A DNA stretch of 64,000 nt from Escherichia coli (GTDB lineage Bacteria > Pseudomonadota > Gammaproteobacteria > Enterobacterales > Enterobacteriaceae): assembly GCF_003334405.1 (NCBI RefSeq), contig NZ_QOWM01000008.1, one strand, 5' to 3'. The position numbers were made by a program, and so were the translations under genes. The notes under the pieces were generated by a model that was not told the origin of the DNA, made no database searches, and was given only the letters and a program-made list of their open reading frames with translations. Positions 56,461 to 56,486 of the stretch are shown here, piece after piece (positions within the stretch are counted from its first letter, which is position 1; the number at the start of each line of letters is the position of its first letter).

Positions 56461-56486
<26 letters not shown>

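Follow-up and report, generated by a model that had tools for sequence, protein, structure and literature searches.

The convergent genes ycjG and mpaA of Escherichia coli share their last 26 bp, at positions 56461-56486 of the window (the whole 64,000-nucleotide stretch that was analysed), and this junction is very probably a passive one, in which stop codons drifted in a place without a spacer and the untranslated read-through is cleared by Rho. The overlap is already present in the reference annotation, and both the overlap of the transcripts and a Rho site are contained in published genome-wide tables. The value of the locus is that of a worked example, in which a single-base deletion in one stop codon probably rewrote the C-terminus of the partner, one substitution in some Citrobacter swaps the gene that is extended, and codon-position statistics reveal which gene owns the shared bases.

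On the plus strand, ycjG (55521-56486; b1325 in RefSeq) encodes the 321-residue L-Ala-D/L-Glu epimerase and ends with a TAG stop at 56484-56486, while mpaA (56461-57189, minus strand; b1326) encodes the 242-residue murein tripeptide amidase A and has its TGA stop on 56461-56463. The shared stretch thus spells part of F314 followed by TTGELHL-stop in YcjG and, on the opposite strand, part of P235 followed by KDAIRPS-stop in MpaA. The sequence-only reading had reported this 26-bp tail-to-tail overlap, and the open reading frame list, the sequence and the RefSeq annotation all agree with it: in E. coli K-12 MG1655, which matches the window base for base across 9,001 positions at this site (1,333,409 is added to obtain record coordinates), ycjG is annotated at 1388930-1389895 and mpaA at 1389870-1390598, with the same 26 bp in common. 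A 2-kb query covering both genes was found in 5,414 of the 5,426 complete genomes of E. coli, and around the junction the genes follow one another as tyrR(+), tpx(-), ycjG(+), mpaA(-), ymjC/ymjD/ycjY(-), pgrR(+) and mppA(+).

That one of the two C-termini is wrongly annotated, so that there would be no real overlap, can practically be dismissed. The sole hint in this direction is the deposited E. coli MpaA chain (PDB 5HXD), which is identical to MpaA over residues 1-237 and ends there, without the last five residues; a 237-residue MpaA would, however, require a stop codon that is absent from the DNA. YcjG is identical over its full length to PDB 1JPD (residues 4-324), so that both frames match solved proteins, and since both proteins are genuine and each reading frame must end at the first stop that it meets, the overlap carries no annotation ambiguity. 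We rejected misannotation on these grounds.

The two genes meet in phase (123:132), with codon positions 1, 2 and 3 of ycjG facing positions 1, 3 and 2 of mpaA. The conserved cores of the two proteins lie only 7 nt apart, as the codon for YcjG L321 ends at 56483 and that for MpaA W233 occupies 56491-56493. A junction alignment of 81 loci and a frame walk place in this gap (56484-56490) both the ycjG stop, which makes up 3 of the 7 nt, and the putative site of a 1-nt deletion (TGAGG to TAGG). It is because the cores are so close that the mpaA frame extends seven codons into antisense ycjG. In the frame walk, the three minus-strand frames entering ycjG would yield overlaps of 4, 26 or 108 bp, and stop-free antisense runs in the two genes average 20-40 codons; with a spacer of about zero, a length of 26 bp is no more than chance gives. 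Among the nine convergent junctions that we counted in the window (the last of them, mppA-ynaI, placed by older genome coordinates), two overlap, namely ymiD-pdeR by 19 bp and ycjG-mpaA by 26 bp, and spacers of about 43-125 bp separate the genes at the remaining seven. The former overlap, at 11348-11366, is formed by the small protein gene ymiD (+) and the 3' end of pdeR (-); the pair is included in a published excludon list, which also counts pdeR-ymiD-yciZ as a noncontiguous operon (Sanmartin 2025, PMC12288877).

Shifts of stop codons are the accepted origin of convergent overlaps, of which 58 or 75 have been reported in E. coli depending on the count, and phase (123:132) is the commonest (49%) among those of at least 5 nt (Lillo & Krakauer 2007, PMC2174442; Huvet & Stumpf 2014, PMC4161906). 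The ycjG/mpaA pair resembles such cases in that the 3' ends of two genuine genes, one on each strand, overlap in this same phase after a change of stop codon. Unlike the typical convergent overlap, whose modal length is 4 bp, it spans 26 bp, belongs to an overlap that has been kept with varying length across two families, and goes back to an event that can be reconstructed, probably down to a single-base deletion in the stop codon of the partner.

We collected the corresponding junctions by a genome scan with MpaA among species representatives of the Enterobacteriaceae, taking the best 80 of 215 relatives together with K-12. In all 81 loci, ycjG is the adjacent convergent neighbour of mpaA. 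The overlap measures 10 bp in 45 of them (Enterobacter, Klebsiella, Kluyvera, Leclercia, Lelliottia, Kosakonia, Trabulsiella and others), where it has the motif TCAyCTyTGA, and 26 bp in another 26, K-12 included (Escherichia, Salmonella and Citrobacter). Three loci overlap by 4 bp, one by 33 bp and one by 47 bp, and in the remaining five inserted DNA parts ycjG from mpaA by 88-331 bp. In Pantoea, Erwinia and Cronobacter, the overlap measures 26, 21 and 19 bp, respectively, with YcjG (327-332 residues) as the extended partner and a short MpaA (235-240 residues). When these three are added to the best 80 of the 215 relatives, the genes are convergent in 83 of 83 species and overlap in 78, and in the representative Enterobacteriaceae junctions that we inspected the distance between the cores is 7-14 nt.

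The junction alignment reduces the difference between the 26-bp and 10-bp forms to a single base of the ycjG stop codon, TAGG vs TGAGG. The length of YcjG is the same in both, with TAG as the stop in the longer form and TGA in the shorter, and it is the end of mpaA that differs, reading ...WQPQR-stop (237 residues) in the 10-bp form and ...WHPKDAIRPS-stop (242 residues) in the 26-bp form. The long form probably derives from the short one: as long as the cores stay close, each gene would end at whichever in-frame stop comes first, and in the lineage of Escherichia, Salmonella and Citrobacter the loss of 1 nt from the ycjG stop (TGA-G to TAG) would have left YcjG at 321 residues while shifting the frame of the mpaA end from ...PQR-stop to ...PKDAIRPS-stop, so that an older overlap of 10 bp grew to 26 bp. 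We infer the direction of this change by parsimony, with the 10-bp form taken as ancestral within the family; what the two forms display is a stop codon that changed and a reading frame that then ran on to its next stop. The overlap has also moved by substitution. In three Citrobacter loci (L014, L016 and L017), a single T-to-A change at the site equivalent to 56484 turns the ycjG stop from TAG into AAG and the facing mpaA codon from AAA into the stop TAA, which swaps the extended partner and shifts the overlap by 21 bp while leaving its length at 26 bp. What is conserved at this junction is the absence of a spacer; the length and the sequence of the overlap are not.

One of the five spacer lineages was scanned, and its insert (L057, 3730-4013) carries a hairpin followed by a T-run right after mpaA. 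This insert of about 300 bp also contains an open reading frame of 39 residues that is hydrophobic in its C-terminal half (MVDWEEEGVSTQEVLTKRMIDTVGLVILLAVVMAVLCFV) and recalls small membrane or toxin peptides, and an insert of about 300 bp separates ycjG from mpaA in L055, L059 and L061 too; the insert of L052 looks REP-like by eye. The sequence of L059 (CACSKA010000006.1) is titled Chryseobacterium sp. 18061, yet it has an mpaA-ycjG locus of the Enterobacteriaceae type, which includes an 85% identical MpaA and is nearly the same as the locus of 'Citrobacter sp. 18056', and the assembly is probably mislabelled or contaminated.

Variation within the overlap follows the reading frame of ycjG. 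Across the 22 species with the canonical 26-bp form, the per-site entropy at ycjG codon positions 1, 2 and 3 is 0.38, 0.07 and 0.82. Read in the frame of mpaA, entropy at position 2 rises from 0.04 in the neighbouring mpaA-only flank to 0.75 in the overlap, and at position 3 it falls from 1.00 to 0.07. The same pattern is seen in the proteins, where the YcjG tail FTTG(E/Q)LHL is conserved and that of MpaA is variable (AIRPS, GVARS, GAALS, EVVRS, GVDPS). The last five residues of MpaA are also those that the 5HXD chain does without, and Vibrio MpaA (4AXV) aligns up to MpaA residue 235 only and ends two residues later. These observations suggest that it is the YcjG sequence which selection maintains in the shared bases, and that the extension of MpaA into ycjG is a dispensable passenger.

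The coding regions leave zero intergenic DNA and nothing resembling a terminator hairpin lies near the junction, so that the statement of the sequence-only reading that there is no room for a terminator between the genes holds. A scan for consensus terminators and promoters found nothing near the junction, and such sites were no more numerous than in shuffled sequences; RNA folding across it gave no significant structure on either strand (z = -0.3 and -1.6), and an Rfam scan of 54.5-58.6 kb returned no element at the junction. A sub-threshold match of the Rfam AdoCbl-II family inside ycjY (E = 0.16) was taken as chance. The bidirectional intrinsic terminators described for convergent genes, G+C-rich stem-loops with A and T tracts on their flanks (Wang, Watters, Ju & Liu 2022, preprint, 10.1101/2022.10.23.513370), require a stem-loop between the gene boundaries, and ycjG-mpaA, unlike them, has neither the intergenic DNA nor the hairpin. 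What it has in common with the collision-programmed termination pairs of the same study is that its polymerases can meet head-on. As no hairpin terminator can fit, a polymerase leaving either gene would run on into the partner, carrying on there as a producer of untranslated antisense RNA.

For ycjG, the fate of this RNA can be read from published data. Genome-wide mapping of Rho termination placed a bicyclomycin-sensitive region with its peak at 1,390,286 (+), classed as antisense to mpaA, where coverage upstream and downstream of the peak is 47 and 14 without bicyclomycin and 58 and 68 with it (Rho score 3.94, p = 7.2e-5; Adams 2021, PMC7815308). The peak corresponds to position 56,877 of the window, 391 nt past the ycjG stop, and falls within a zone of the read-through RNA (56807-57006, plus strand, antisense to mpaA; +321 to +520 past the stop) that is C-rich, G-poor and weakly structured, with C/G ratios of 1.3-2.0 and a folding z-score of +0.8; past the ycjG stop, this RNA meets stops in all frames. 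Read-through that is raised by bicyclomycin, from an untranslated RNA of such composition and little structure, is what a Rho-dependent terminator predicts, and Rho halts the ycjG read-through about 400 nt downstream of the gene. The region fits the 'antisense' class that is common in that study, with nothing unusual about it. Transcription had been claimed to run from each gene into the other, and the Rho region inside mpaA, together with the antisense reads and the excludon listing considered below, confirms from published data that transcription enters the partner gene. Transcript ends ahead of the overlap had been named as one observation that would tell against this; for ycjG, the Rho region lies 391 nt beyond the stop.

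In the other direction, the mpaA read-through RNA (56001-56360, minus strand, antisense to ycjG; +100 to +460) is C-rich as well, with C/G ratios of 1.4-2.1, and is a predicted Rho substrate. The tables of the same mapping study contain no entry for ycjG, and thus neither a discrete 3' end nor a Rho region of mpaA read-through (Adams 2021, PMC7815308); from its composition, Rho termination is the likely fate of this RNA too. Those data also contain a Term-seq 3' end at 1,390,559 (-), position 57150 of the window and 39 nt after the mpaA start codon. Just upstream of it, as read by eye from the printed flank, lies a hairpin with a 6-bp stem made of G and C throughout (GCGCCG-AACG-CGGCGC), and the end may mark an attenuator or the point where processing stops in the ycjY-ymjD-ymjC-mpaA transcript.

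Antisense RNA is present over both genes. In wild-type cells, sense and antisense reads amount to 51.2 and 10.0 RPM for ycjG and to 73.9 and 17.6 RPM for mpaA, antisense fractions above those of thrB (128/1.9) and ycjX (33.9/1.4) (Huang 2020, Table S1c). By gene-level arithmetic on these reads, the antisense density over mpaA is about 40% of the sense density of ycjG, and that over ycjG about 11% of the sense density of mpaA. The p19 capture data of the same study further include low-abundance duplexes of about 21 bp inside mpaA, at 56985-57061 and thus about 500-575 nt past the ycjG stop and beyond the Rho peak (Huang 2020, supplementary file 7; 1,388,416-1,388,494 in U00096.2, converted by +1,976, the offset of the mpaA end between the two genome versions). 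Some pairing of sense and antisense RNA and occasional collisions of polymerases would be expected under a passive junction, probably with little effect on the level of either enzyme. Against such a junction count the antisense density over mpaA, which is not negligible, the duplexes beyond the Rho peak, and the persistence of the spacer-less state across two families, which could reflect selection and not inertia.

The same facts can be brought forward for a functional convergent excludon, in which the absence of a terminator is maintained and a gene is repressed when its partner is transcribed, whether through collision of polymerases or because RNase III cuts the duplex, so as to balance or alternate MpaA and YcjG. 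The pair is one of 165 convergent excludons catalogued in MG1655 and was seen in at least 50% of 58 stranded RNA-seq samples (Sanmartin 2025, PMC12288877), antisense reads and double-stranded RNA are detected, and the tail-to-tail layout without a spacer recurs in the 78 of 83 species (the best 80 of 215 relatives and the three additional ones) described above. Compared with other neighbouring genes, excludon pairs in general are higher in synteny and lower in single-cell co-expression, which speaks for this reading as it speaks against a passive junction. Nevertheless, we consider it unlikely. Where coding sequences overlap and both genes are transcribed, an excludon call is almost automatic, and transcripts overlap anyway in 276 of 370 convergent operons of E. 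coli (about 75%), by 286 nt on average. In the published data, ycjG and mpaA do have the overlapping transcripts of opposite-strand neighbours that define convergent excludons such as the Listeria mogR paradigm (PMC12288877). In classic excludons, however, the partners have opposing or alternative roles and reciprocal expression, and here MpaA and YcjG catalyse consecutive steps of one pathway and appear in the regulon listing of one repressor, the opposite of that antagonistic logic. The length and sequence of the overlap are not conserved, either gene can be the extended partner, and five lineages have gained a spacer, at least one of them with a terminator-like hairpin.

The wider arrangement of four alternating genes could be read as a co-transcription design of two interleaved non-contiguous operons, one running from mpaA through antisense ycjG to tpx on the minus strand and the other from tyrR through antisense tpx to ycjG on the plus strand, an idea that we regard as very unlikely at this locus. 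In its favour, the excludon catalogue counts mpaA-ycjG-tpx among three 'noncontiguous operons' of MG1655 and tpx-ycjG among 16 divergent excludons (Sanmartin 2025, PMC12288877), a top-20 cluster of double-stranded RNA spans the whole tpx coding sequence, with a tyrR-ycjG read-through transcript among its suggested sources, and the alternating order of tyrR, tpx, ycjG and mpaA (53314-57189) is kept in Pantoea, Erwinia and Cronobacter. The classification, however, was made from coverage thresholds (ExcludonFinder) and not from single molecules spanning three genes, and the sources consulted showed no molecule of this kind. The RNA of tpx is about 9-fold above that of mpaA (660.6 vs 73.9 RPM), which implies a promoter of its own, antisense density over ycjG is only the 11% of mpaA sense given above, and transcripts of mpaA would likely be terminated by Rho in the strongly C-rich antisense of ycjG before they reach tpx.

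Whether or not it takes the form of an excludon, a regulatory coupling between the genes would have to act on two enzymes of one route. The sequence-only reading had both of them acting on murein peptides, and this is correct, as MpaA and then YcjG act consecutively on the murein tripeptide; as consecutive steps, both are needed together. Secondary listings place both genes in the regulon of the PgrR repressor, which lowers mpaA expression in rich medium. Their RNA is modest, about 50-75 RPM vs 660 for tpx (Huang 2020), from which head-on encounters of polymerases should be rare. A literature search for locus-specific perturbation or single-cell data on ycjG-mpaA found none. On balance, a large putative regulatory effect of either gene on the other looks unlikely: the shared pathway and PgrR listings, the modest RNA, the commonness of overlap among convergent transcripts and the drift in overlap length and sequence all argue that interference is incidental rather than designed. 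It is an improbable scenario that mutual antisense read-through, limited by Rho and hence sensitive to translation and nutrient state, sets the ratio of the two enzymes, with the terminator-less junction kept for this purpose since before the split of Enterobacteriaceae and Erwiniaceae, or that it ties the enzymes into the two interleaved operons. If interference did tune two consecutive steps of peptidoglycan recycling, the pair would form an unusual excludon, one of cooperating and not opposing genes. We therefore favour the passive junction, in which the stops drifted and Rho limits what runs past them.

Upstream of mpaA, at 57271-57520 (ymjC/ymjD), about 665 extra bp split the match in many other genomes of E. 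coli, where the annotation gives an SDR family oxidoreductase or an NAD-dependent dehydratase as the feature preceding mpaA. By this split and annotation, ymjC and ymjD of K-12 look like the remnants of a deleted gene.
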